From Bacteroidia bacterium (GTDB taxonomy: Bacteria > Bacteroidota > Bacteroidia > UKL13-3), in assembly GCA_044239605.1 (NCBI GenBank), contig JBIIBC010000002.1, forward strand, positions 135,441-199,440: a stretch of DNA of 64,000 bases, given 5' to 3'. Of this stretch, positions 40,514-53,426 are shown piece by piece; position 1 is the stretch's first letter; the number at the start of each line of letters is the position of its first letter. Both the position numbers and the translations under genes were made by a program. The notes under the pieces were generated by a model that did not search any database, was not told the origin of the DNA, and was given only the letters and a program-made list of their open reading frames with translations.

Positions 40514-43500
40514 TTATTGCTTAACAAACTTTCTTGTTAAGCTATAACCTTTATTATCAGTTACCTTTATTAAGTAAATTCCGCTAGTTAAATCATCAAT
40601 AACTATTGTGTTATTGGTTAATACCGCATTTTTAACCAAAGCACCTGATAGTGCAAATATTTGAATATCTGTAATATCTGTATTACTTTCAATACTTAAT
40701 GTTTTAGTAGCAGGATTAGGATAAATTGTAAATGTTAATGGATTAATAGTTTCTAAACCCACATTCTGAATTACCAATGTATTGCTAGTTGCTTCGCAAT
40801 TGGTAGCATCTTTTACTTTTACAGTATAATCGCCATTGGCTACCGCAGTATGAGTTGCATTAATAGCTCCTGCAATTATTACATTATTTAAATACCATTG
40901 GTAATTGCTAAAGCCAGCCGTTGCAGTTAATGTATTTTGATTGTTACTTATACTAACTGTTAATGGTGCATTTACTGTTAAGTTTAAAGTTATTATTGAA
41001 TCGCATCCTACAGCATTACTTGTAGTATCAAAGTAAATTCCTGATTGGCTTAAAGCATTGCCTTTAAAGGTAAATGTTTCGCCATTACAAATGGTTTTGT
41101 TAAAGTTAAAAACCGATTTTGCCTTAACCGAAACAGCTGCAATAGCTGAATTTACTGTTCCGCAGCTTGATGTAACTTCACAAATATAGTTACCTGCATC
41201 GCTGTTTGATAAACTATTAAAGTACAGCGTATCATTATTTGAATTAGCCACAGCAGTCCCATTTTTAAACCAATTATAATTATTGTTATTGCCAGAGGCA
41301 ACCAAACTTAAATAAGAAACTGAGCCTTGGCATGAATTAACTGCACTTGGCTGAGTTAAAATATTTATACTATTAACTATGCTTAATTTAGCTACAGATG
41401 AATTTTGGCTACCGCAAGTTCCTGAAATTGAAACTGTATAATTACCAGAATCGGCAGCACTAACTAAAGTTTTGCTAAAAGTGCTGCTGTTTGCTCCAGC
41501 AATACTATTGCCATTTAACTTCCATTGATATTGTAAACTATCGCCCGTGGCTATTACACTAAAGTTAAAACCTTGGCTTGTGCATACCGTTTGTGAAACT
41601 GGCTGTGAAGTAATTTGGGTAGAATTACTTATTGATAAAGTTACTGTATTAGAAATAACATTTCCACACGTATAATTCATAATTACCCTATAGTTAGCTG
41701 CATCGGCAGTAGTAACATTGGTTAATAACAAAGAATCATTATTACTATTTGGAATACTTACCCCATTTTTTTGCCAAACATAAGTTACATTTTGTCCATT
41801 TGTTTTTATTACAAAAAGTGCATTTGTATTTGTACATACATATAGATTAGTAGGCTGACTTGTTATTTGAAGTGCATCAATAAATTTCACCAAAGCAACA
41901 TTTGACAATATACTAGAACAACCATTTGAAACCATCACTGTAAATGAATCATTATTGACTACATTAGCAATATTTACACTATATATTGAGTTAAAAGCAT
42001 TTGGTATATTTATTCCATTTTTTTTCCATTGGTAAGTTAAATTTGAACCAGTGGCATTTACTTGAAATGTGATAAATTGATTTTCTTGAAGTGGGCAAAT
42101 GTTTTGATTCGTAGGATGCGAGGTAATAGCTAAATTACTCTGAATAATACTTAAATTAATATTGGTAGAATATACACCTGCACAAGCTGTAGACAAACCA
42201 ATTAAACATGAATAGCTTCCGGTATCAGTGGCCTGCACATTATTAACGGTATATGTAGCAGCATTTGCACCTTGAATTGGACTACCATTTTTTAGCCATT
42301 GGTAAGTTACATTTGGTCCTGCGGTAACGTTAACAGTAGCCGAAGCAGTACTTCCTAAACACACAGCTCCAAAACCCGAAATACTATTAAATTCAGCCAT
42401 TTGGAATAAAGCACTAACTTGAGTGGCTGTTAAAACTGAACTGTAAATACGTATTTCATCAAAAGTTCCCTTGGCACCATTGGTATTATAAATGGGTGCA
42501 GTATTACCAAAACGATTGATTTGAGTATTGCTAGCGCCACTTCCCATAACTGGTGGAGCTACTATAGTAGTTGGAATGGTAATATTATTTCCATCAACAT
42601 AAATTTTGGTAGTAGTTCCGGCTTTGGTTACTACAAAATGATGCCAACCATTGGTAATAGTAACTCCTAAAGATTGAAAACCAGAACCACCAACTTGATA
42701 ACCTAAAACACCAGAAGCATTGATAAATAGCATATCGCCATAATTGGCGCTATTACTTCCAATAATGGCTTCACCAGCAAAATTCGCTACACGTTTATAC
42801 CATAATGATACCGAAATATTATCTGTAGTTACAGGACTGGTTAAAGCCAATGCATTATTTGTTGTTGTTAACACAACTGCTTTGTTGGCAATATTTGCTC
42901 TATCGGTTGTAAACGAATAGCTGGTATTTGTAGGTGTGAATGTATTTGTGCCAACCGTTGGTGTTAAATTATTATCAAACTTCCAATAGCTAACTAAATT
43001 ATTAGTAGCAAAATTAGTTGTAATACTAAAAGTACTAGCATTACTTACAAGTACATTGTTTGAACAACCTGTAATTTCGCAAGTATAATTGCCTGCATCA
43101 CTGCTTTGAACAGCACTAATCATTAAGGTGTCGTTATTTGTATTCGGAATGTTTACATTGTTCTTTTTCCATTGATATGATGCAGCATTTTGAGCACCCA
43201 CAAAAAAATAAACACTGCTACCCAAACAAACCAAACTATTTGAAACTGTGGTATTAGTTGTAATAGTTGCTGCTGCTGCTGTTAATGTTGCTGCATTTGA
43301 ATTAATTATAACACTGTTACAACCTGTAACTTCACAAGTATAGCTTGTAAAATCAGAAGTGGTAATATTTGTTAAAATTAATGTATCGTTATTTGAATTT
43401 GGAATAACCACCCCATTTTTTTTCCAAACATAACTTTGTCCTCCTGCTACATTAATAGTAAACATGGCTGTTTCTCCAACACATGCAGCTTGATTTACTG

Positions 43501-46243
43501 GTTGGCTTACTATAGTACTATTTATAATACCAGTCAAATAAATGTTGTAATCTACTGAATTACAAAAGTTATCTGAAATAGAATTACGCAAATACAAGTC
43601 GGTTGAAGGCATTGAGTTAATAGTTAAAGCATTGGTTTTAACGCCTGCGTAACTTGCGCCATTTACCAAAGCACTAAAGGTTCCTTTTGTTACTTCATTA
43701 AACCATTGATAACTTAAACCACTATTACCAGCTATAACTTGCACTGTGGTTGAAACACCAGCGCAAATGGGCACTGCACCTAAACTGCTGGCCGCAGGTA
43801 ATTGCCCATAAATTTTTATATCGTTGTATAATTGAAGTACATTTCCAGCTTTTAAAGTTGAAGTTATTCTTACATCATCTATTAAACCTTCAAAAAACTG
43901 GTTATTTCCTGTAAAGTTAACATTAGCTAAAGTGGTATTTAAATAACCATTTCCAATTTTAAAAATATTAGATGTACCTATTTGCAATGCTGCTGAGGTC
44001 ATACTTCCCACTTCTACTCCATCAAGGTAAATAATTTGTTTGCCCAAAGCAGCACTATATGTCCAAACTGCATGATGCCAATTGGTATCCATAACAATCC
44101 CCGATGAATAAATTGGTAAGCCACTTCCTGGATAAACATAACCCGATAAACGACCTGTTGAATCTAAGTATAAAATTGGATTCCACGAACCAGGACTTGC
44201 TACTTGAAAACCAATCAAGCTCATAGCTTTTCGATTTAAATTAGCTCTTTTAAACCAAACCGACACACCATTATTGTTGCCTGAAATCATACTTCCAGTA
44301 ACATCAATTACTGATGAAGTTCCATTAAAAACAGCCGCTTTGTTATTTACTCCATACCTATCTTTTCCGTAAGTAATAGCGGTTGCCACACCATTTTGGG
44401 TAGTAGCAAGTTCATTTAAAGTATTACCATCTAATGGATAACTATAGTTTGAAGTAAAACTAGTTAAGGTAGTTAATGTTATTTTCTTTGACCATTTTTC
44501 ACCGCAATTATTTGAAACTTTGCATTGGTAAATTCCGGCTGTAGTGTTAATTATATTTGCAAAAGTATCGGCTGTTAATAATACACCATTTCTATACCAT
44601 TGGTATTTTAAAGGCATGGTTAAAGATGAAGCTACTGCAGTTACATTTATTTTACAGCTTTCAATATTATCGGCACTATTAATGTTTAAATTAATAATGC
44701 AAGGTTCTCCCACATATTTAGCCAATACAGTATTAGTAGCAGTGGCATTTAATAAAGGCAAATTAGGACTCAATTTTGTGCTATCTGTATTATGCGTGTT
44801 AACATATGTACCTGCTACAAAAATTGAGCTAGAATCGGTAACAGCAATTCCTGTAAAACCATCGCTACTATTGGCAGTATTGGTTAAAACAGCTGCATAA
44901 TCCAAATTTAAATTAGCGTTATATTTTGCATAATAAGAATCGAAAGTATTTGATGTACTGCGCAGGTAAGTTGAAGTTGGATTCCTATCAAAATCAAAAG
45001 TTCCATTGGCAGCACCAGAAAAGAAATAATTGCCTTTTTTATCAATATAGAAACCATTTACATACATGTTAGGAAAACCGTCAATGGTGTCAATAACCAT
45101 TCTAGGTTCTTTATTGCCAGTTATTAATGTTCCATTGGTTGCATTATAATGAGCTAAATACAGGCTATACAATCCTGTAGGCAAACGTTTTGAAATAAAA
45201 TTATAAACCCCAGTAGCGTTAGGATTTAAATCAACTGTGCTAGCCCAATTTGATTGATAAGCCACAGCTAGCTCATTATTACTGTTAAATGCTAAACGCA
45301 TGTTTGAATTAGTAGTTCCTACAGCAATTGGACAAGTCCATAATACGTTAAAGTTTGTAGCATTATAAGCTACTATACATTGAGGACCAGTTTCGTTAAA
45401 AGCAGTGCTATTGCCTTGGTTAAAGTTTGTTGAACCATTTAAATCGACTGCCCAATATAAAGTATCATTACGCATTTTCATATCCCATGAGCTTCCAATT
45501 AAGCCGCCATTTATAAATCTATGGTTTAGGTAGGTTAAGTTTGCGGTAAGTCTAACCAAATAGTCAGCAGTTCCGCTTGAAGAACTATAGGTAGTTGGTG
45601 CTTGAAAACCAGGTGCGGGATCTAAATCAATACTCCGTAAGATAGAACCAGTTACTCCATAACGTCCACGAACAACCACATTTTCATTTTTATCAAACAC
45701 ACAACTTAGCATATCATTAGCTACTGAACCTCCGTTATTTCCATCGTTAGCTAAACCATGAGATCCCAATAAAGTGCCATTATTATTAATGGTTGCCATA
45801 TAAGCTCCACCTGAATTACCAAACAATGTACTTGTTGAATAACCTCCTACTAAAACGACTTTTCCGCCTGCGGACACATCAAAAAAATTACAAGTACCTG
45901 CCGAAATAGAAGTAACCCAAACCAATTCTTTATTGGGAGTGTATTTAGCAATGTAAACTCCTACTGACGTATTTGAAGTTGCTGCACCTGGATCAAAATC
46001 TGCATTTCCGCCCGTTTGTCCAACCAAGTAAAGATTGCCTAAACTATCGGTTTTCACACCTTTGTTTAAGGCATTGGTAAGACCAAAACTCCACGCATGT
46101 TGAGGCGTTTTTGATTGTGCTATTAAACCATTAAAGTTAAAAATAGCATAAAGTATAAAGGCAACCTTTATGGCTTCATACTTTATTTTTAGTTTAAAAT
46201 TTGTTTTGTTTATATTGTTCATAATATTTGTATTACTGCACAA
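40514..46243 (-). CDS. Giant T9SS type-A cargo protein with multiple Ig-like domains and two LamG-like (concanavalin A-like lectin) domains. Adhesin-like.
   Basis: C-terminal Por_Secre_tail (IYPNPATKTLSIE...GIYLIKVTDNKGYSLTRKFVKQ). About eight Ig-like repeats (YQWKKNG...SGNYTCEV). LamG_3 signatures (LIDDVRITSTLKAGNVLQLY, FDEIRIYSSVLTATQVSALF). Confidence 0.8.
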   Translation of the reverse strand: MCSNTNIMNNINKTNFKLKIKYEAIKVAFILYAIFNFNGLIAQSKTPQHAWSFGLTNALNKGVKTDSLGNLYLVGQTGGNADFDPGAATSNTSVGVYIAKYTPNKELVWVTSISAGTCNFFDVSAGGKVVLVGGYSTSTLFGNSGGAYMATINNNGTLLGSHGLANDGNNGGSVANDMLSCVFDKNENVVVRGRYGVTGSILRSIDLDPAPGFQAPTTYSSSSGTADYLVRLTANLTYLNHRFINGGLIGSSWDMKMRNDTLYWAVDLNGSTNFNQGNSTAFNETGPQCIVAYNATNFNVLWTCPIAVGTTNSNMRLAFNSNNELAVAYQSNWASTVDLNPNATGVYNFISKRLPTGLYSLYLAHYNATNGTLITGNKEPRMVIDTIDGFPNMYVNGFYIDKKGNYFFSGAANGTFDFDRNPTSTYLRSTSNTFDSYYAKYNANLNLDYAAVLTNTANSSDGFTGIAVTDSSSIFVAGTYVNTHNTDSTKLSPNLPLLNATATNTVLAKYVGEPCIINLNINSADNIESCKINVTAVASSLTMPLKYQWYRNGVLLTADTFANIINTTAGIYQCKVSNNCGEKWSKKITLTTLTSFTSNYSYPLDGNTLNELATTQNGVATAITYGKDRYGVNNKAAVFNGTSSVIDVTGSMISGNNNGVSVWFKRANLNRKAMSLIGFQVASPGSWNPILYLDSTGRLSGYVYPGSGLPIYSSGIVMDTNWHHAVWTYSAALGKQIIYLDGVEVGSMTSAALQIGTSNIFKIGNGYLNTTLANVNFTGNNQFFEGLIDDVRITSTLKAGNVLQLYNDIKIYGQLPAASSLGAVPICAGVSTTVQVIAGNSGLSYQWFNEVTKGTFSALVNGASYAGVKTNALTINSMPSTDLYLRNSISDNFCNSVDYNIYLTGIINSTIVSQPVNQAACVGETAMFTINVAGGQSYVWKKNGVVIPNSNNDTLILTNITTSDFTSYTCEVTGCNSVIINSNAATLTAAAATITTNTTVSNSLVCLGSSVYFFVGAQNAASYQWKKNNVNIPNTNNDTLMISAVQSSDAGNYTCEITGCSNNVLVSNASTFSITTNFATNNLVSYWKFDNNLTPTVGTNTFTPTNTSYSFTTDRANIANKAVVLTTTNNALALTSPVTTDNISVSLWYKRVANFAGEAIIGSNSANYGDMLFINASGVLGYQVGGSGFQSLGVTITNGWHHFVVTKAGTTTKIYVDGNNITIPTTIVAPPVMGSGASNTQINRFGNTAPIYNTNGAKGTFDEIRIYSSVLTATQVSALFQMAEFNSISGFGAVCLGSTASATVNVTAGPNVTYQWLKNGSPIQGANAATYTVNNVQATDTGSYSCLIGLSTACAGVYSTNINLSIIQSNLAITSHPTNQNICPLQENQFITFQVNATGSNLTYQWKKNGINIPNAFNSIYSVNIANVVNNDSFTVMVSNGCSSILSNVALVKFIDALQITSQPTNLYVCTNTNALFVIKTNGQNVTYVWQKNGVSIPNSNNDSLLLTNVTTADAANYRVIMNYTCGNVISNTVTLSISNSTQITSQPVSQTVCTSQGFNFSVIATGDSLQYQWKLNGNSIAGANSSTFSKTLVSAADSGNYTVSISGTCGSQNSSVAKLSIVNSINILTQPSAVNSCQGSVSYLSLVASGNNNNYNWFKNGTAVANSNNDTLYFNSLSNSDAGNYICEVTSSCGTVNSAIAAVSVKAKSVFNFNKTICNGETFTFKGNALSQSGIYFDTTSNAVGCDSIITLNLTVNAPLTVSISNNQNTLTATAGFSNYQWYLNNVIIAGAINATHTAVANGDYTVKVKDATNCEATSNTLVIQNVGLETINPLTFTIYPNPATKTLSIESNTDITDIQIFALSGALVKNAVLTNNTIVIDDLTSGIYLIKVTDNKGYSLTRKFVKQ

Positions 46244-46295
46244 ATATTTATGGTTAGCATATTTATTTATTAGTAGTTTATACTAACTCCATTTT

Positions 46296-46453
46296 TGATT
46301 TGACAAAAACCTAATTTTTAAGTTTTACTAATACTAACTACCTATAAAAACAATGCATAACAACAATACTTACAATTAACTAAACTTAAAATAAAAACAA
46401 AAAAAGCCCAACCTTTCGGTTGAGCCTCCTATATGAAAACGAACTACTAACTT
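46296..46453 (-). repeat. Shared 3'-flank/terminator module, copy a. Includes the terminator hairpin at 46392..46425.
   Basis: About 155 bp, nearly identical to 47521..47671. Contains ggctcaaccgaaaggttgggc followed by a T-run on the - strand. Confidence 0.75.
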
Positions 46454-47446
46454 TTATTCTTTTATAAATTTATTGGTGTATAAATTTCCTTTTTCATCTT
46501 TAATTTGAATGGTGTATATTCCTATTGGTAAAGTGCTAATATCAATTGAGTTGTTTATGATATCAAACTCAGAAGTTTGTCCCATACAATTTATGGTAAT
46601 TACTTCTTTAATTTTAACATCACTTTTTATATTTAATTTATTTTGGGTTGGGTTTGGAAATACATTTATCATGCTAGTTTTTATGTTTTCAATGCTAGAA
46701 GAATTGCCATTATGAATATTTGCTACCTCTAGCTGACTTAGCTCTCTATTATAAAGATACAATTCATCCATAAAAGAATTGTATTGCGATTGCCCATTTT
46801 CAAATAATCCTCCTACCATTAAATAGTCTTTGTTAAAATATGTGCCATTACCATAAGTATTTATAGTGGCAGGAAAACTGGTATTTGTACCTTCTAATAT
46901 GCCATTTACATATATCTTACCTACCCCATTATTATAGCTAACAGCTATGTGGTACCAGTTATAGTTTTGAGTTAATGTAGTGGACGATACAATTACATCA
47001 TTACAAGTAAAATGGATTTTTCTATCAATATTCGATATCCATAGTGCATAATTATTGTATATAGAAACACCTCCATTACCATTAGATATATTGGCTCTAT
47101 TTACAAATATAAAACCATTTTGAAGCATATTTGCCGTTGGCTGTGCCCATACACTAGCAGAAAATGTATTGGTAAAATTAAAATCATTTGATGGATGATA
47201 TAATGCCGAAAAAATATCTTTATCAAAAGCTGCTAATGATTTACCAATTTTACTGGTATCGGACAACCTAAAACTTTGATCAGAGCTAGTTTTTGATACA
47301 TAAATTAAATGTCGGTTATTACCCGATGCATCGTTAAAATTTTCATCGAAAGAGTATCTTCCAACTAAACCATTGGTTGGAACTGTTTGTCCAAAAAGGC
47401 TTGCTGATGCACAAATTGCAAATACTGTTGTAATTATTTTTTTCAT
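46454..47446 (-). CDS. T9SS type-A cargo protein with LamG-like (Laminin_G_3) lectin domain, paralog 1
   Basis: True start MKKIITTVFAICASASLFGQ at 47446. The ORF-track N-terminal extension METGYCVNF... is a conserved 5' leader. LamG pattern (WYHIAVSYNNGVGKIYVNG...MDELYLYNRELS). CTD VFPNPTQNKLNIKS...YTIQIKDEKGNLYTNKFIKE. Confidence 0.75.
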   Translation of the reverse strand: MKKIITTVFAICASASLFGQTVPTNGLVGRYSFDENFNDASGNNRHLIYVSKTSSDQSFRLSDTSKIGKSLAAFDKDIFSALYHPSNDFNFTNTFSASVWAQPTANMLQNGFIFVNRANISNGNGGVSIYNNYALWISNIDRKIHFTCNDVIVSSTTLTQNYNWYHIAVSYNNGVGKIYVNGILEGTNTSFPATINTYGNGTYFNKDYLMVGGLFENGQSQYNSFMDELYLYNRELSQLEVANIHNGNSSSIENIKTSMINVFPNPTQNKLNIKSDVKIKEVITINCMGQTSEFDIINNSIDISTLPIGIYTIQIKDEKGNLYTNKFIKE

Positions 47447-47520
47447 TTTTCTGTTATTGAATGCAGCAAAGTTGACACAATAGCCCGTCTCCATTTTTAT
47501 ATAATTTACCTACGCCTTTT

Positions 47521-47671
47521 TTGATTTGACAAAAACCTAAATTTTTAAGTTTTACTAATACTAACTACCTACAAAAACAATGCATAACACCAATACTTAA
47601 AATTAACTAAACTTAAAATAAAAAAAAAACTTTTCGGTTGAGCCTTCTATATGAAAACGAACTACTAACTT
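47521..47671 (-). repeat. Shared 3'-flank/terminator module, copy b (terminator partly degraded)
   Basis: Near-identical to 46296..46453. A third partial copy begins at 48704. Confidence 0.75.
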
Positions 47672-48628
47672 TTACTCTTTTATAAATTTATTGGAATACA
47701 CATTTCCAAAAGTATCTTTTGTTTGAATGTTATAAACTCCACTTGCCAAATTACCAATTGCTATCGTGTTATTTATAATATTTACCTCAAAACTTTGGCC
47801 CAAGTTATTTACGATTAAGGCAGATTGTACATCTTTTAAACCAACAATTTGCAAAATATGTTGCGCTGGATTTGGGTATATCGCTAGATTTAAGTTTGCT
47901 TTAACATTTTTAAGATTAGTTGATGGAGCTGTGCCAGTATATAAATGTGTTACTTCAGATTTATTTAAGCCTCTGTTATAAATGGCTAAATCATCAAAAG
48001 ATCCTGTATAATCACTACCATAGACTTGAGCAATATTTGCTTTTGAAAAATCAATTGCACCTGTTACGGCTTTGGTACCAATTAAGGTATCGTTCATATA
48101 TAAATTAATATCTTTTCCATTATATGTCAAAACAACATGTGTCCAAACTTCATCAATGGATTTTAAACTTATATTTTTACCAACTTTTACCATTGTATCA
48201 TTAATTCCTATTTGGCAGTAAACTTCTGAGTTATTATTATCTTCAGAGTTAACCAATCCAATTGCAAAGGCATTAAAGGAATTTGCTTTGTTACCCTGTT
48301 TGGCTAAAATAGGATAAAAGCCAAGATTAAGTAGATTTGGTTTAAACCATAGACTAATAGAAATATTGTTTGGTCGCAATTCTTGACGACTGCCATCCAA
48401 AGTTAATTGTTGTCTCTGACTGCATGCAAAAGCACCAGATTGCTTGTTTTTTCTGTCGCGTTCAAACTCGATATTATCAATATCAGTAGGAACCATTGAA
48501 ATGTTGGTATTTGAAAAGAAGTTACCATCAAATTCCCAAAAGCCTACTAAACCATTGGTTGGAACTGTTTGCCCAAAAAGGCTTGCTGATGCACAAATTG
48601 CAAATACTGTGGTAATTATTTTTTTCAT
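47672..48628 (-). CDS. T9SS type-A cargo protein with LamG-like lectin domain, paralog 2
   Basis: True start at 48628. Identical signal peptide and 5' leader to paralog 1 (48542..48703 matches 47360..47520). Divergent LamG core (VWTHVVLTYNGKDINLYMND...FDDLAIYNRGLNKSEV). Related CTD. Confidence 0.75.
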   Translation of the reverse strand: MKKIITTVFAICASASLFGQTVPTNGLVGFWEFDGNFFSNTNISMVPTDIDNIEFERDRKNKQSGAFACSQRQQLTLDGSRQELRPNNISISLWFKPNLLNLGFYPILAKQGNKANSFNAFAIGLVNSEDNNNSEVYCQIGINDTMVKVGKNISLKSIDEVWTHVVLTYNGKDINLYMNDTLIGTKAVTGAIDFSKANIAQVYGSDYTGSFDDLAIYNRGLNKSEVTHLYTGTAPSTNLKNVKANLNLAIYPNPAQHILQIVGLKDVQSALIVNNLGQSFEVNIINNTIAIGNLASGVYNIQTKDTFGNVYSNKFIKE

Positions 48629-48902
48629 TTTTCTGTTATTGAATGCAGCAAAGTTGACACAACAGCCCGTCTCCATTTTTATACAATTTACTTACGCCTT
48701 TTTTGATTTGACAAAAACCTAATTGATTTTACTAAAGAAAAACAATGAACAATTAATCTAAAATGTTAATTTATTAACTATTTAAAAAATTACTTTACAA
48801 TTAACTATATCTACTTTTGCAATATACATTTTACTAAAGTAACTTTTTATTTTACCAAATATTATGCTAATAGTAAACAAATTGTAATTTTGAACATACC
48901 AA

Positions 48903-51803
48903 ATGAATATTAAGCACTACTTACTTTTGGCATTTTGTTTATTAACTAAAATAAACTTTGCTCAGCAACCCGTTTATAGGCATATAAACAAATACAATGG
49001 ACTTCCTTCAAATACCATTTACGATATGAAAGAAGATAAAAATGGATTTATTTGGCTAGGAACCGAAAAGGGTTTGGTACGTTTTGATGGGAAAAACACG
49101 GTAGTTTATACCCATGCCAAAATGAATGGAACTGCTGTTTCTAATATTATAATTGATGGTATTGGACGTATTTGGTGTCAAAATTTTACTGGCCAACATT
49201 TTTATGTTTTAAACGATTCAATGTTTTATCCTGAATTAAAAAATACAGGAACTTTTAACATAACTTATATAAATAACCAAGACGAAATCTTTATCGTTTC
49301 AAATAGCATGTTGTATATTTACAATAAACAGCTTATTTTAAAAGATAGTATTGGTATAAAAGATTTTGTAAACTCATTTATTTTCAAAAACAACTATTAC
49401 GTAATTGAAAACAATAAATTAAGTAAAATAGTTAATGGCAAAAAAATATTGAATAACACTTTTGATAATAAAAATAATAAGTCAGGAGCTGTATTTGCCA
49501 TTAATAAAAGCCATGTTTTTTTTATAAATAAATCAAGTGCTGACGCAGTTTTATTTCAATTATTCCCAACCTTTACCGAAACAAAATTATTCAAGCAAAC
49601 AACCTTAATTCAGACCTTGAATATTACAAAAGATTCATTGCTTTGGATTAATACTACAGCGGGCTGTTTTATTTATAATATCCAGTTAAAACCCATGCAA
49701 TTTGAACAACCATTATTTAAAAACAATAGCATATCGGCAGTTATTAAAGATAGGAATGGTGCCTATTGGGTTAGCACCACCAATAACGGAATTTATATTA
49801 TAGAAGATTTACATAGCAAACAAATTAACTTTAATAATGAAAACATTACTGCTATTAATAATATAAACCATCAAATTGTTGCAGGAACAAGTTCAGGAGA
49901 AGTTGGCCAACTGAATTCAAGTCACAACGAGTTTAAGCAAATATTTAAAACAGATATTTTACACAGAGTAAATTTTATAAAATTCGATTCATTTAACAAT
50001 CGTTATATAATTGGAGCAGATAAGGTATATGGATTGAAAAATAAAAAAAAGGAATTCAATTTTAACATAGCAGCCAAAGATGTTTGCTTAGGTGATCATA
50101 ATGAATATTTATTGGCAGCATCCTCTTCGTTGGCCAATATTATAAAGCATAACCAGCAAAGTAATTGGAGTAATTTTTACAGTACTAAAAATACAAGCAA
50201 TTCATTTTGTTGTAATATTTTTGATTTAAAAGAGTTTTCTTCTCGCACAAAAGCCATTGAAACTTCAACTGATTTTTCAACCTTATATGTTGCTAGTGCA
50301 AAAGGTCTTGTAAGTATATCACAAAATAAAATTCTAGAAATACAATTAAATAATGCATCTATATCTGCAAGCGATTTATTTATTCATAAAGATACTTTAT
50401 ACGCAAGCACTTATAACCAAGGAGTGTTAATGATTGTAAATAAAAAAGTAGTAAAAATTTGGGATAAAAGCAATAGCATTATTAACCAAACTATTAGTAA
50501 AATAAGGTATTGGCAAGGTAAAATATGGCTAATAAGCGATAATAATTTATACACCATTAAACTATCTAATTTTGAACTTAAAAATCACTTCAAATCAAAT
50601 TCATTTTTTTACAATGAACTAAACGACATAGCTTTTAATAACAATTTTTTATATGTAGCCAGCAATGAAGGTGTTATACAATCACCCATTAATCAAGAAC
50701 TTACAATACACAAAGTACCCAATTTATTTATTGAAAGCATAAAAGTTAACGATAAAATACTAACTCAAAATGTATTGAATGATTTAAATTACAACCAAAA
50801 TAATATAACCATTAACTTTGCTACACCTTGGTTTTTTGGCGAAAACAAACTCCAAATATTATATAAAATTAACAATAGTGATTGGCAATTGTTTGAAAAA
50901 GGTGCACGCATGCTATCACTTTCATCATTATCTCCAGGTAATTATTTTATACAGTTTAAAACTTGTATTGATGGTCAATATTACTCACCTATTGCCTATG
51001 TATCGTTCCAAATTTCTTATCCTATTTGGCAGCAAGTATGGTTTTTACTCATTGTGTTTTTATTACTAGCTGCATTATTTTTTGCTATTTATAAATACCG
51101 TTTAAAACTTATCAATAAACAAAGTAAACTGTTAATTGAAAAAAATAAATTAGAAACCGATTTACAAAAATCAATGCTTTCTTCCATTAAATCGCAAATG
51201 AATCCTCATTTTATATTCAATGCGTTAAACACCATTCAATCGTATATCTACCTAAACGATAAAGAAAATGCTTCTAATTATTTGGCTCAATTCTCCATGT
51301 TAACTCGCAAAATATTAGATATGAGCAATAGTGAAACAGTAACTTTAGCCGATGAAATTGAAACACTTCAACTTTATTTATCGCTCGAAAAAATGCGTTT
51401 TGAAGATAGCTTAAACTATGAAATAACCATTGCACCAAATTTAAAAGTTAATGATGTAAAAATCCCTTCTATGTTAATTCAGCCTTATGTAGAAAACGCA
51501 TTAAAACATGGATTACTGCATAAAAAAACGAATAGAACCTTAGGTATTGTATTTGAACAAGATTCCCAATTTTTAATAATAAAAATTGATGACAATGGTG
51601 TTGGACGAAAAAAAGCCAATGAACTTAACTCAATTAAAGACCATAAATTCAATTCCTTTTCTACTGAAGCCAACCAAAAACGATTAACCTTATTAAATAA
51701 ACAAACTACTGAAATTGGAGTAAACACCATTGATAAATTTGATAAAAATAGCATTGCAGAAGGTACTTTGGTAGTTCTAAAAATACCATTAAGTGTTTTG
51801 TAA
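48903..51803 (+). CDS. LytS/YehU-type sensor histidine kinase with periplasmic two-component-regulator beta-propeller repeats and Y_Y_Y domain
   Basis: Signal peptide. Repeated propeller blades (GLPSNTIYDMKEDKNGFIWLGT). Single TM (VWFLLIVFLLLAALFFAIY). His_kinase H-box NPHFIFNALNTIQ. HATPase region. Confidence 0.85.
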   Translation: MNIKHYLLLAFCLLTKINFAQQPVYRHINKYNGLPSNTIYDMKEDKNGFIWLGTEKGLVRFDGKNTVVYTHAKMNGTAVSNIIIDGIGRIWCQNFTGQHFYVLNDSMFYPELKNTGTFNITYINNQDEIFIVSNSMLYIYNKQLILKDSIGIKDFVNSFIFKNNYYVIENNKLSKIVNGKKILNNTFDNKNNKSGAVFAINKSHVFFINKSSADAVLFQLFPTFTETKLFKQTTLIQTLNITKDSLLWINTTAGCFIYNIQLKPMQFEQPLFKNNSISAVIKDRNGAYWVSTTNNGIYIIEDLHSKQINFNNENITAINNINHQIVAGTSSGEVGQLNSSHNEFKQIFKTDILHRVNFIKFDSFNNRYIIGADKVYGLKNKKKEFNFNIAAKDVCLGDHNEYLLAASSSLANIIKHNQQSNWSNFYSTKNTSNSFCCNIFDLKEFSSRTKAIETSTDFSTLYVASAKGLVSISQNKILEIQLNNASISASDLFIHKDTLYASTYNQGVLMIVNKKVVKIWDKSNSIINQTISKIRYWQGKIWLISDNNLYTIKLSNFELKNHFKSNSFFYNELNDIAFNNNFLYVASNEGVIQSPINQELTIHKVPNLFIESIKVNDKILTQNVLNDLNYNQNNITINFATPWFFGENKLQILYKINNSDWQLFEKGARMLSLSSLSPGNYFIQFKTCIDGQYYSPIAYVSFQISYPIWQQVWFLLIVFLLLAALFFAIYKYRLKLINKQSKLLIEKNKLETDLQKSMLSSIKSQMNPHFIFNALNTIQSYIYLNDKENASNYLAQFSMLTRKILDMSNSETVTLADEIETLQLYLSLEKMRFEDSLNYEITIAPNLKVNDVKIPSMLIQPYVENALKHGLLHKKTNRTLGIVFEQDSQFLIIKIDDNGVGRKKANELNSIKDHKFNSFSTEANQKRLTLLNKQTTEIGVNTIDKFDKNSIAEGTLVVLKIPLSVL

Positions 51804-51870
51804 AATCAAAGAACACTTAAGTAAAACATGTCTAAATTTTAATATACTTTGATTTTATATTTGAAACCTA

Positions 51871-52611
51871 ATGAAAGCCATAATAATTGACGATGAAAAC
51901 AAAGCAAGACAATTGCTAACAGCTATGCTTGCTAATTACTGCGCAGATGTAGAAATTTTGGCTGTTTGCGATGATTTACCTAATGGTGTAAAAGCCATAA
52001 AAAAACACCAACCAGAATTGGTATTTTTAGATATAGAAATGCCAGGACATAGTGGATTAGAATTAATTGATTTTTTTGAAGCAGATGAGATAAATTTTGA
52101 TATAATTTTTACCACTGCCTATAATCAATATGCCATTGATGCCTTTAAATTACAAGCGGTTGATTATATTTTAAAACCCATTATGTTTCAGCACTTAATT
52201 GATGCTGTAAACAGGGCAAAAAGTAAGCAAGAAAAAAATAATTATACCTACCAATTACTAAAACATCAATTAAGCAAAGAGGGTGCAAAAAAAATTGGTA
52301 TTCCTCAATTGAATGGAATTAGGTTTTTAGAACCTACTGAAGTTATTTATTTTAAAGGTGATAGAGCTTATACCGAAATATATTTAAAAGATGGTTCTCA
52401 AATTTTAGCTAGTCGAAATTTAAAATATTTTGAAGATGTGTTAGCCAATCATTTAATGTTTTTTAGATGCCATAAATCGTATATAGTTAATACCAATTAT
52501 ATAACAGAATACATCAAGTCGGATGGTGGTTATTTAGTAGTAAATAAAAACATACAAATAGGTGTATCAGGCGAAAAAATTAGTACTTTACTAGAAATGA
52601 TTAATGCCTAA
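51871..52611 (+). CDS. LytTR-family response regulator (REC plus LytTR DNA-binding domain)
   Basis: REC domain with phospho-acceptor Asp (FLDIEMPG). C-terminal LytTR (IYFKGDRAYTEIYLKDGS...FRCHKSYIVN). Confidence 0.85.
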   Translation: MKAIIIDDENKARQLLTAMLANYCADVEILAVCDDLPNGVKAIKKHQPELVFLDIEMPGHSGLELIDFFEADEINFDIIFTTAYNQYAIDAFKLQAVDYILKPIMFQHLIDAVNRAKSKQEKNNYTYQLLKHQLSKEGAKKIGIPQLNGIRFLEPTEVIYFKGDRAYTEIYLKDGSQILASRNLKYFEDVLANHLMFFRCHKSYIVNTNYITEYIKSDGGYLVVNKNIQIGVSGEKISTLLEMINA

Positions 52612-52991: not shown

Positions 52992-53426
52992 TCATTGTAA
53001 CTTACCCATTTCCCTTAATTTTTGGGCTAATTCCTCGCCATACATATCAAAATTAGAAGAATCTAATGAAATTATTTTACTTTGAGTTAGGTAAAATCTT
53101 AAGTATACCCTGCGTTGAAGTTTAAGCATATTTAATTCTCTAACAGATTTAATTTTACTAATTTGTTCCCATTTAAAACTGCCATATTGGTATAATTTAA
53201 TTTGTTCATCATCTGCCTCAATCGCATATTTCTCTGACTTGATGTATCTTACAAGTGCCAAAACAATCAACACATAAACCAAACATGTAATTACAACTCC
53301 CCATACATAGCCACAATAATTACTAAAAAACATAAATATGAATGGAAACATGGCTATCAATAAAAACAATGCCACGTAATTTGAAGTGTCCTTAACTTGA
53401 ATTTTATTTGTCGTCATTTTATACAA
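52992..53426 (-). CDS. Hypothetical membrane protein: two TM helices plus a small PH-like soluble domain. Same architecture as 5944..6402.
   Basis: TM helices ALFLLIAMFPFIFMFF and VVITCLVYVLIVLALV. Confidence 0.4.
   Translation of the reverse strand: MYKMTTNKIQVKDTSNYVALFLLIAMFPFIFMFFSNYCGYVWGVVITCLVYVLIVLALVRYIKSEKYAIEADDEQIKLYQYGSFKWEQISKIKSVRELNMLKLQRRVYLRFYLTQSKIISLDSSNFDMYGEELAQKLREMGKLQ

Follow-up and report, generated by a model that had tools for sequence, protein, structure and literature searches.

A LamG gene slot beside a LytTR two-component system in uncultured Bacteroidota, with a probable common operator and signs of recombination at conserved gene ends

Tandem genes with conserved ends and divergent central parts raise the question of whether the ends serve gene expression, the exchange of the central parts, or both. 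Such an arrangement is found in a 64-kb stretch of DNA (positions 135,441 to 199,440 of contig JBIIBC010000002.1, assembly GCA_044239605.1; hereafter the window, numbered from its first letter) from an uncultured, AT-rich member of the Bacteroidota with a GC content of 31% in the window. Here two short genes, cassettes A and B, each encode a LamG domain and a type IX secretion system (T9SS) sorting domain, and lie head to tail in front of a gene for a giant LamG protein. The initial annotation, made from the sequence alone, took the conserved ends as a means of swapping variable lectin cores in a candidate diversity-generating or phase-variable locus, with the cassettes feeding into the giant adhesin. 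The reading that we consider likely, though well short of certain, is a different one, namely that the cassettes fill a co-regulated lectin slot under an adjacent kinase/LytTR pair, and that this slot is shuffled across strains by recombination at the conserved ends, with no switching device. The window sequence matches Joint Genome Institute (JGI) metagenome contig Ga0492785_0000043; related loci were obtained via exact-protein look-ups and a genome scan, and the comparison genomes are all metagenome assemblies or short contigs. The genes concerned are as follows (aa, amino acids).

47672..48628, minus strand: cassette B gene, 318 aa, putative signal peptide, LamG and T9SS type A sorting domain
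46454..47446, minus strand: cassette A gene, 330 aa, putative signal peptide, LamG and T9SS type A sorting domain
40514..46222, minus strand: gene for the giant T9SS protein, 1902 aa, two LamG domains, multiple Ig-like domains and a type A sorting domain
48903..51803, plus strand: sensor histidine kinase gene, 966 aa, PF06580 (His_kinase), from Pfam and hydropathy
51871..52611, plus strand: response regulator gene, 246 aa, REC and LytTR DNA-binding domains, BtsR/LytR-like, from Pfam and NCBIfam

The head-to-tail array of predicted T9SS LamG cargo genes was borne out by profile searches, in which A, B and the giant protein all exceeded the cutoffs for Laminin_G_3 (PF13385; 67.2, 58.8 and 89.1 bits respectively, the last with two domains; cutoff 27.6) and for the sorting domain TIGR04183 (29.7, 27.2 and 48.7 bits; cutoff 23); for PF18962 (cutoff 27) A and the giant protein scored above the threshold (34.2 and 44.6 bits) and B slightly under it (25.5 bits). 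The putative signal peptide of cassette B is MKKIITTVFAICASASLFGQTVPTNGLVG, and the N-terminus MKKIITTVFAICASASLFGQ has an n-h-c layout as judged by eye. Four cassette types, A to D, were distinguished among the related loci, and all consist of a putative signal peptide, a LamG core and a sorting domain. The cassette B protein is identical in two further JGI samples.

What we regard as the most useful new result is a candidate operator that would link the LytTR system next door to the cassettes, the giant adhesin and its own regulator gene. It forms part of a 67-nucleotide (nt) operator-promoter unit that has four copies in the window.

48649..48715, minus strand: operator-promoter of B, TTTGTCAAA-N12-TAAGTAAAT ... 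CAACTTTG
47467..47533, minus strand: operator-promoter of A, on the same 67-nt plan as the units of B and the giant gene
46241..46307, minus strand: operator-promoter of the giant gene, TTTGTCAAA-N12-TTAGTATAA ... AATATTTG
51797..51863, plus strand: operator-promoter of the regulator gene, TTTGTAAAA-N12-TAAGTAAAA, then 39 nt and a perfect TAnnTTTG box, TATATTTG

The unit consists of a 9-bp imperfect direct repeat with a 12-bp spacer, TTTGTCAAA-N12-TTAGTAAAT, in which the distance from GT to GT is 21 nt, the second half-site takes the form T[TA][AT]GTA[AT]A and the half-site sequence can be written TTnGTmAAw. Exactly 39 nt separate the second GT from the TTTG of a (T/C)AnnTTTG -7 box, and TAnnTTTG at -12..-5 has been described as the flavobacterial sigma-A box (PMC9723704). 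When the upstream regions of 10 loci were aligned, the core 12-mer GTCAAATCAAAA was present in all 25 distinct cassette and giant-gene promoters (25/25), and no other exact occurrence was found on the gene-sense strand of these loci; matches with two or fewer mismatches were confined to the junction of the kinase and regulator genes, two window sites and one site in GCA_049240025.1 (locus L005). The full 67-nt pattern picked out exactly the four window sites listed above and had no match in 100 shuffles. The distance from the repeat to the ATG is 82-85 nt (once 92 nt) for cassettes and giant genes and 71 nt for the regulator gene, whose copy of the unit is conserved in seven related loci and has the kinase stop codon within its first repeat. 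In a distant locus (L014, CAZJHS010000046.1), which has a 979-aa kinase and a substantially diverged regulator, a diverged repeat precedes both the regulator gene and a 565-aa LamG gene and keeps the 21-nt and 38-39-nt spacings. There is a precedent in other LytTR proteins: the ComE site comprises two imperfect 9-bp direct repeats with a 12-mer linker (PMC4005675), and AgrA binds direct repeats just upstream of autoregulated promoters (PMC4227749). From its position in front of the cassettes, the giant gene and the regulator gene, the geometry kept in the distant locus and the ComE and AgrA precedents, we infer that the repeat TTTGTCAAA-N12-TTAGTAAAT is probably the operator of the adjacent LytTR regulator, and the candidate site before the regulator's own gene (51797..51863) would imply autoregulation.

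The two genes of the presumed signalling system are syntenic with the array in all related loci, and the kinase gene is transcribed divergently from it. The kinase has a signal-like N-terminus, an extracytoplasmic region of ~700 aa with a Reg_prop beta-propeller repeat and a single transmembrane segment at ~aa 707-733. The regulator matches PF00072 (73.9 bits) and PF04397 (56.8 bits), and its best NCBIfam match is BtsR (E 1.5e-41, under the equivalog cutoff).

The position of the -7 box leaves a 5' untranslated region of only ~16 nt by inference, so most of what the initial annotation called a 5' leader would be promoter and operator that is not transcribed. A structured RNA leader was rejected: shuffled sequences have more structure than the presumed mRNA 5' end (z +2.0), and there were no Rfam matches at E<=1 in 46000-49000. 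A sigma-70 promoter scan returned 11 sites against 19.5 expected and is uninformative for Bacteroidota. Several reading frames that run through the promoters were also rejected: a 346-aa call for gene A starting METGYC is a spurious upstream extension, longer open reading frames (ORFs) beginning METG(C/Y)CVNF are artefacts of the same kind, and the reading frame METGCCVNFAAFNNRK is promoter DNA and not coding. The giant protein starts at ATG 46222 and has 1902 aa, not the 1909 aa at first assigned to it, as the alternative TTG start at 46243 falls within the -7 promoter box. In practical terms, spurious N-terminal extensions of 16 aa and 7 aa across promoters are annotation errors to be flagged.

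The promoter unit lies within longer repeat modules at both ends of the cassettes, which a self-comparison of the region by repeat finder and pairwise alignment confirmed.

48543..48722, minus strand: 5' module, copy at B; A-type promoter, inferred untranslated region of ~16 nt and signal peptide (repeat finder, alignment)
47361..47540, minus strand: 5' module, copy at A (repeat finder, pairwise alignment)
47521..47700, minus strand: 3' module after B; last sorting-domain codons (NKFIKE), stop, conserved 27 nt, degenerate terminator, spacer and operator of A
46281..46480, minus strand: 3' module after A; end of the sorting domain, stop, conserved 27 nt, intact terminator, spacer and operator of the giant gene
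46401..46430, minus strand: intrinsic terminator hairpin of A, 13 pairs followed by a T-run

The two 5' modules (48722..48543 against 47540..47361) differ by 6 mismatches in 180 nt, an identity of 97%, so that they are not nucleotide-identical, as the initial annotation had it; identity drops abruptly past the PTNGLVG codons. Between these ends the cores of A and B have ~43% nucleotide identity, which is the chance level, and over their full length the proteins are 35% identical. The last 210 nt, encoding the sorting domain, are 63% identical at the nucleotide level. The 3' modules are 93% identical over 46305-46402 and 47532-47629, and a similarity of ~93% extends from the last ~25 nt of the coding sequence through ~170 nt of 3' flank. 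The near-identical 3' flank is therefore real, but only gene A keeps the terminator ascribed to it, since a 9-nt deletion after B (47621-47645, minus strand) has removed the 3' arm of the hairpin; the predicted folding energies are -18.3 kcal/mol (z -3.6) for A and -4.6 kcal/mol (z +0.45) for B. With this arm lost, B transcripts in the window strain should read into the promoter of A. In the L126 population the hairpin after B is intact.

The partial third copy was found at 48689-48734, and there is another before the giant gene at 46281-46326. Both partial copies have in common with the full modules the 23-nt sequence TTAGGTTTTTGTCAAATCAAAAA, of which there are exactly three copies in the window with none expected by chance, and both are without the promoter-proximal part and the signal peptide of the full modules. 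The giant-gene copy also contains the upstream spacer. No further copies of the module sequences were found in the 64-kb window (none expected in shuffles), and within that span they do not behave as a promoter or terminator consensus of general occurrence. Two minor features of the modules may be recorded. The ~100-nt spacers upstream of the operators of A and the giant gene (47543-47618 and 46316-46391) contain a conserved imperfect inverted repeat around TTATGCATTG, with 25-nt arms that are 76% complementary and 26 nt apart, and this could be a second regulatory site. A 10-pair palindrome, TTCCAACTAAACCATTGGTTGGAA, lies at 47359-47382 in the VPTNGLVG codons of cassette A, exactly at the boundary of 5'-module homology; it is absent from the B copy and probably coincidental.

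Comparison of copy number and cores across strains revealed seven arrangements between the kinase gene and the giant gene, given here in the order from kinase to giant gene, which follows the last cassette in the first six (MAG, metagenome-assembled genome).

B-A: the window and three other JGI samples
D-A'-C: GCA_049240025.1 (L005), with D-A' found in two further assemblies as well
B': one Logan contig
B''-C: GCA_013298895.1 (L008)
C-A: a pond MAG
A': two MAGs
B'''-C': one Logan contig (SRR24908243_353040, L127), ending 50 nt past C' with a giant-type sorting domain and 3' flank

Cassette number (one to three), type (A to D) and order thus vary among close relatives at the same slot. The flanking proteins are 84-100% identical in amino acid sequence among the compared genomes, and cassettes of the same type are 45% (A vs A') or 56-57% (B vs B'/B'') identical. 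By comparison, cassettes have been gained, lost, reordered and replaced by deeply diverged alleles across strains. One pair, L005 and L008, are 98-100% identical across 3.4 kb of flank (dS, the synonymous divergence, is 0.012 for the aminotransferase gene) and yet carry D-A'-C and B''-C respectively. Their divergence grows toward the array, through a small ORF, the regulator gene (~95% identity, dS 0.27) and the kinase gene (91%, falling to 72% nucleotide identity at its 5' end; dS 0.78), and identity returns to 96% from the terminator before cassette C. This decay (L005:1-8560) follows the pattern of a long-standing polymorphism whose centre is the array together with the sensor end of the kinase. 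The small ORF in the corresponding region of the window (52992-53426, minus strand, 144 aa), between the regulator gene and an acyl-CoA dehydrogenase gene, has no family match, and this region is the first to lose identity between L005 and L008. The giant protein is 88-97% identical in amino acid sequence among the six related loci compared. For the kinase and the giant protein, amino acid identities close to the nucleotide identities had suggested positive selection, which was ruled out by ratios of non-synonymous to synonymous substitution (dN/dS) of only 0.09-0.14; the values were 0.01-0.04 for the regulator and 0.04-0.09 for the aminotransferase. Selection on the kinase and the giant protein is accordingly relaxed, at 3-10 times the ratio of the regulator and aminotransferase, yet purifying.

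The conserved ends themselves carry traces of exchange. The B-type gene of L127 is 91% identical to cassette B of the window in its core and only ~80% identical in the upstream and signal-peptide region, whereas the upstream region of window B is 98-99% identical to A-type promoters (80% to that of the L127 gene) and its 5' end matches that of A at 96%. In a three-way comparison, 31 of the 33 informative sites between -93 and +74 placed window B with A, and from +86 on it followed the L127 gene at essentially every site. With an A-like 5' end and a body like that of the L127 gene, cassette B of the window is a chimera, its 5' module being a gene-conversion tract of ~175 bp from A. One end of this tract lies at the operator and the other at the NGLV codons (48554..48543), a motif conserved in all cassette types. 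Other comparisons are similarly discordant: the A gene of locus L010 is 98% identical to window A in the core and 61% in the upstream region, and the A genes of L005 and L012 (CAZGVO010000016.1) are 99% identical in the sorting domain and 82% in the core. The similarity matrices of the promoter, core and sorting-domain segments accordingly indicate discordant histories. The A allele of locus L004 is a mosaic, or recombinant, with no differences from the window in 1.6 kb, then 19 in 756 bp, then one in 1.16 kb; within the stretch covered by L126, 12 of its 13 differences match the L126 allele. The claim that the conserved ends are recombination points is thus supported, from these sequences, as an account of events on an evolutionary scale.

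Two further junctions deserve mention. The C' gene of L127 (2572-4154) encodes a 510-aa cassette with a core 65-67% identical to other C cores, whilst its last ~70 aa, 3' flank and terminator are of the giant-adhesin type (the last 90 aa being 72% identical, against 40% to other C sorting domains). This junction, seen in one short-read contig of 4.1 kb, suggests recombination between sorting domains; it could be a deletion that fused C to the end of the giant gene, or it could be a mis-assembly. In a JGI sample (3300042569, Ga0454390_0052175; L125:1-107) cassette B is cut at about codon 45 and replaced by foreign sequence made up of four tandem units of ~24 nt, GGTCAATTTnnTCCGG..., that resemble a multi-site transposon or insertion-sequence end; the motif GGTCAATTTnnTCCGG is absent from the 64-kb window.

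If the cores are exchanged, the question is whether dedicated machinery is responsible. No silent cassettes were found, every cassette being a complete gene with its own operator, -7 box, ATG, signal peptide and full ORF, and hence there are no silent donors. The best inverted repeats returned by a repeat search are AT-rich and 73-86% complementary. In the 10 kb to each side, the Pfam hits recorded for called genes include no recombinase, invertase, integrase, transposase or reverse transcriptase; there were no long simple-sequence tracts, the longest being an A7 run at the start codon and a T10 run following gene B; and no internal repeat matching the cores, as would be expected of the template of a diversity-generating retroelement, was found. 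Variability limited to the ligand loops, the supposed variable parts, was not seen, as allelic divergence spans the whole LamG core (41-46% identity in strands, 35% in loops). Nor are the cassettes credible donors for the giant adhesin, to whose LamG domains they have 24-28% amino acid identity and no nucleotide similarity. On this evidence a phase-variable or diversity-generating mechanism is not supported, and neither is the notion of cassettes that feed into the giant gene.

There are in fact several ways in which the same locus might be accounted for. Programmed phase or antigenic variation, in which a clone would switch at high frequency by inversion, slipped-strand mispairing or copying from silent cassettes, is suggested by the resemblance of homologous tandem ends and variable cores to such systems, by the recombinant L004 allele and by the sample in which cassette B is interrupted by foreign DNA. 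We hold it to be very unlikely, given that each cassette is a full gene complete with operator, -7 box and signal peptide, that the cassettes have so little in common with the giant LamG domains, that the inverted repeats are poor, that the Pfam hits recorded within 10 kb include no recombinase or invertase family, and that the order B-A-giant is the same in the window and three other samples. Plain tandem duplication and divergence, with the ends kept alike by purifying selection and having no role in recombination, is a simpler proposal and less easily dismissed, because every conserved part can plausibly be read as a functional element, the codons of the signal peptide hardly vary between genomes and the unstructured mRNA 5' end could constrain synonymous sites. 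Types C and D, however, have quite different signal peptides and sequences between operator and ATG, so function does not demand 97-99% identity; duplication alone would also sit poorly with the B gene of L127 (core 91%, 5' end 80%) set against the 96% match of window B to A at the 5' end, with the mutually discordant module matrices and with a cassette order that varies (C-A vs A'-C). It is therefore judged unlikely, albeit the least so of the alternatives.

It might also be supposed that the invariant repeat is not an operator and represents the site of a site-specific recombinase, in an integron-like array or as the relic end of a mobile element; one copy does bound every cassette, and cassette content varies. 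The repeat, though, also precedes the regulator gene and the fixed giant gene, keeps a constant distance from the -7 box and the ATG, and retains its geometry in diverged form in the distant locus L014, and there is no integrase or transposase on record within 10 kb; moreover, breakpoints fall in the NGLV codons and inside the A core and not at the repeat alone, all of which makes this supposition highly improbable. An equally slight chance attaches to the view that modules and arrangements are products of mis-joined contigs from mixed-strain metagenomes. For several short contigs (L004, L126) the start or end coincides exactly with a module boundary, and the fusion of C' to a giant-type sorting domain is taken from a single contig, but the window arrangement recurs in independent samples with 0-20 differences over 2.6-3.5 kb, other arrangements are on contigs of 49-124 kb from different projects, and D-A' was found in three independent assemblies.

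A number of points weigh against the reading preferred here, of a co-regulated slot shuffled across strains. Assemblies break or are mis-joined at repeats of this kind, and with several contigs ending at module boundaries some of the arrangements may be products of assembly. A factor other than the LytTR regulator could bind the direct repeat; the transcription start is placed by consensus only; and the giant gene of the distant locus L014 is without the first half-site, having AC instead of GT, so that only the second is recognisable. The term lectin is an assumption drawn from the LamG fold, and ligand binding by the cores is no more than plausible. An AlphaFold2 model of a cassette, with a LamG beta-sandwich plus sorting domain, is of only moderate quality (pLDDT 66). 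Its best Foldseek matches were clostridial neurotoxin Hc fragments (E 1e-9), attributed to the LamG-like sub-domain of Hc, and profile matches in the PDB were to an arabinanase C-terminal domain, botulinum neurotoxin binding domains and pentraxin; model and Foldseek matches would confirm a generic LamG fold and no more.

With these points in mind, the co-regulated slot may be pictured as part of a small regulon made up of the sensor kinase, the LytTR regulator, a variable slot and the fixed gene for the 1902-aa LamG/Ig adhesin, the slot holding one to three short LamG 'lectin' genes whose products are predicted T9SS cargo. On receipt of an extracellular signal the phosphorylated regulator would bind the direct repeat and would switch on all the lectins, the giant adhesin and its own gene together. 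The conserved ends would be functional, comprising the operator and -7 box, a short leader without structure, the signal peptide, the sorting domain's last strand and the terminator, and would at the same time provide the homology tracts in which homologous recombination breaks and joins. The outcome would be a repertoire of co-regulated surface lectins at the level of the population, and not an intracellular switching device. It may even be that the kinase/LytTR pair, the operator and the recombination-prone slot form one evolutionary unit, in which operator, LamG N-terminal and sorting-domain motifs double as homology anchors, new lectin cores arrive pre-wired to the sensor, and sensor specificity and lectin repertoire co-evolve. 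The sensor end of the kinase does diverge along with the array, where divergence peaks; we nevertheless advance this extension tentatively, as a possibility that is more doubtful than not. Were it true, sensor and lectins might be co-evolving under, for example, phage or grazer pressure or with particle or host specialisation in free-living freshwater Bacteroidota.

A collection of metagenome contigs scanned with the operator pattern TTTNGTCAAATCAAAANNNNNNTNNGTNNA gave 35 single matches, none encoding a relative of any protein of the locus; these matches are due to chance and the lineage is absent from the scanned collection. Three T9SS loci of Bacteroidota type are filed under MAGs labelled Candidatus Methylacidiphilales (L011, JBGSBN010000191.1), uncultured Bifidobacterium (L012) and uncultured Chitinophaga (L014), and the first two labels look like mis-binning or mislabelling. 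Literature searches found no specific described LytTR/T9SS/LamG system in Bacteroidota. For one of this phylum's many uncharacterised beta-propeller kinase/LytTR pairs the locus would offer a regulon that is concrete and testable, with a precise operator, fixed promoter geometry, autoregulation and T9SS-cargo targets. It also gives a nucleotide-level view of how T9SS surface proteins may diversify in natural populations, by recombination at export and regulatory signals that leaves near-identical strains with different lectin sets, and this bears on strain-level ecology (attachment, phage receptors) and on the 'hypervariable islets' of metagenome-assembled genomes.

Arrays with some of these properties are known from other bacteria. 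The vlp, vsa and vsp clusters of Mycoplasma hold surface-protein genes in tandem, whose bodies diverge while their 5' non-coding and signal-peptide sequences are highly conserved, and their high-frequency switching works by poly-A promoter tracts or site-specific inversion; neither such a tract nor an invertase was seen here. In the erp genes of Borrelia burgdorferi, which BpuR and EbfC are among the proteins to control, the likeness lies in a promoter/operator common to all cassettes, divergent mature parts and mosaic evolution by recombination. These genes (OspE/F-related, with the 'upstream homology box') encode surface lipoproteins at allelic positions and conserve the promoter/operator, the leader peptide and the first mature residues, the external parts being very diverse; they are co-expressed via the common operator and are thought to derive from one promoter/leader unit joined to many bodies (PMC10016077). 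Their control by the BpaB repressor (PMC10016077) differs from the two-component system proposed here. They differ also in being lipoprotein genes on separate cp32 prophage plasmids, in contrast to a chromosomal tandem array of predicted T9SS cargo, in which only types A and B have the leader in common and the 3' ends also carry a conserved module.

Within the Bacteroidota, the gingipains and HagA of Porphyromonas gingivalis are T9SS cargo. The adhesin domains of Kgp, RgpA and HagA, together with FimA, RagAB and others, occur as discrete variants in a mosaic unrelated to genome phylogeny, which has been attributed to recombination between strains (PMC5266723). Both cases concern Bacteroidota surface proteins diversified by domain rearrangement or allelic exchange, but the P. 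gingivalis loci are dispersed, without a shared operator or a dedicated adjacent regulator, and involve protease and hemagglutinin domains and not LamG. On the regulatory side, the closest likeness in organisation is to LytTR regulons such as ComDE, AgrCA, BlpRH and BtsSR/YpdAB, which have a REC-LytTR regulator, an adjacent PF06580 kinase and direct repeats upstream of the core promoter, including that of the regulator itself. The half-site TTnGTmAAw appears to differ from the sites of AgrA, ComE and BtsR. The kinase of the present locus, with its extracytoplasmic beta-propeller, is likewise unlike the polytopic peptide-sensing or LytS membrane domains of those systems, and the targets proposed for its partner, predicted T9SS lectins and an adhesin, set it apart from them.

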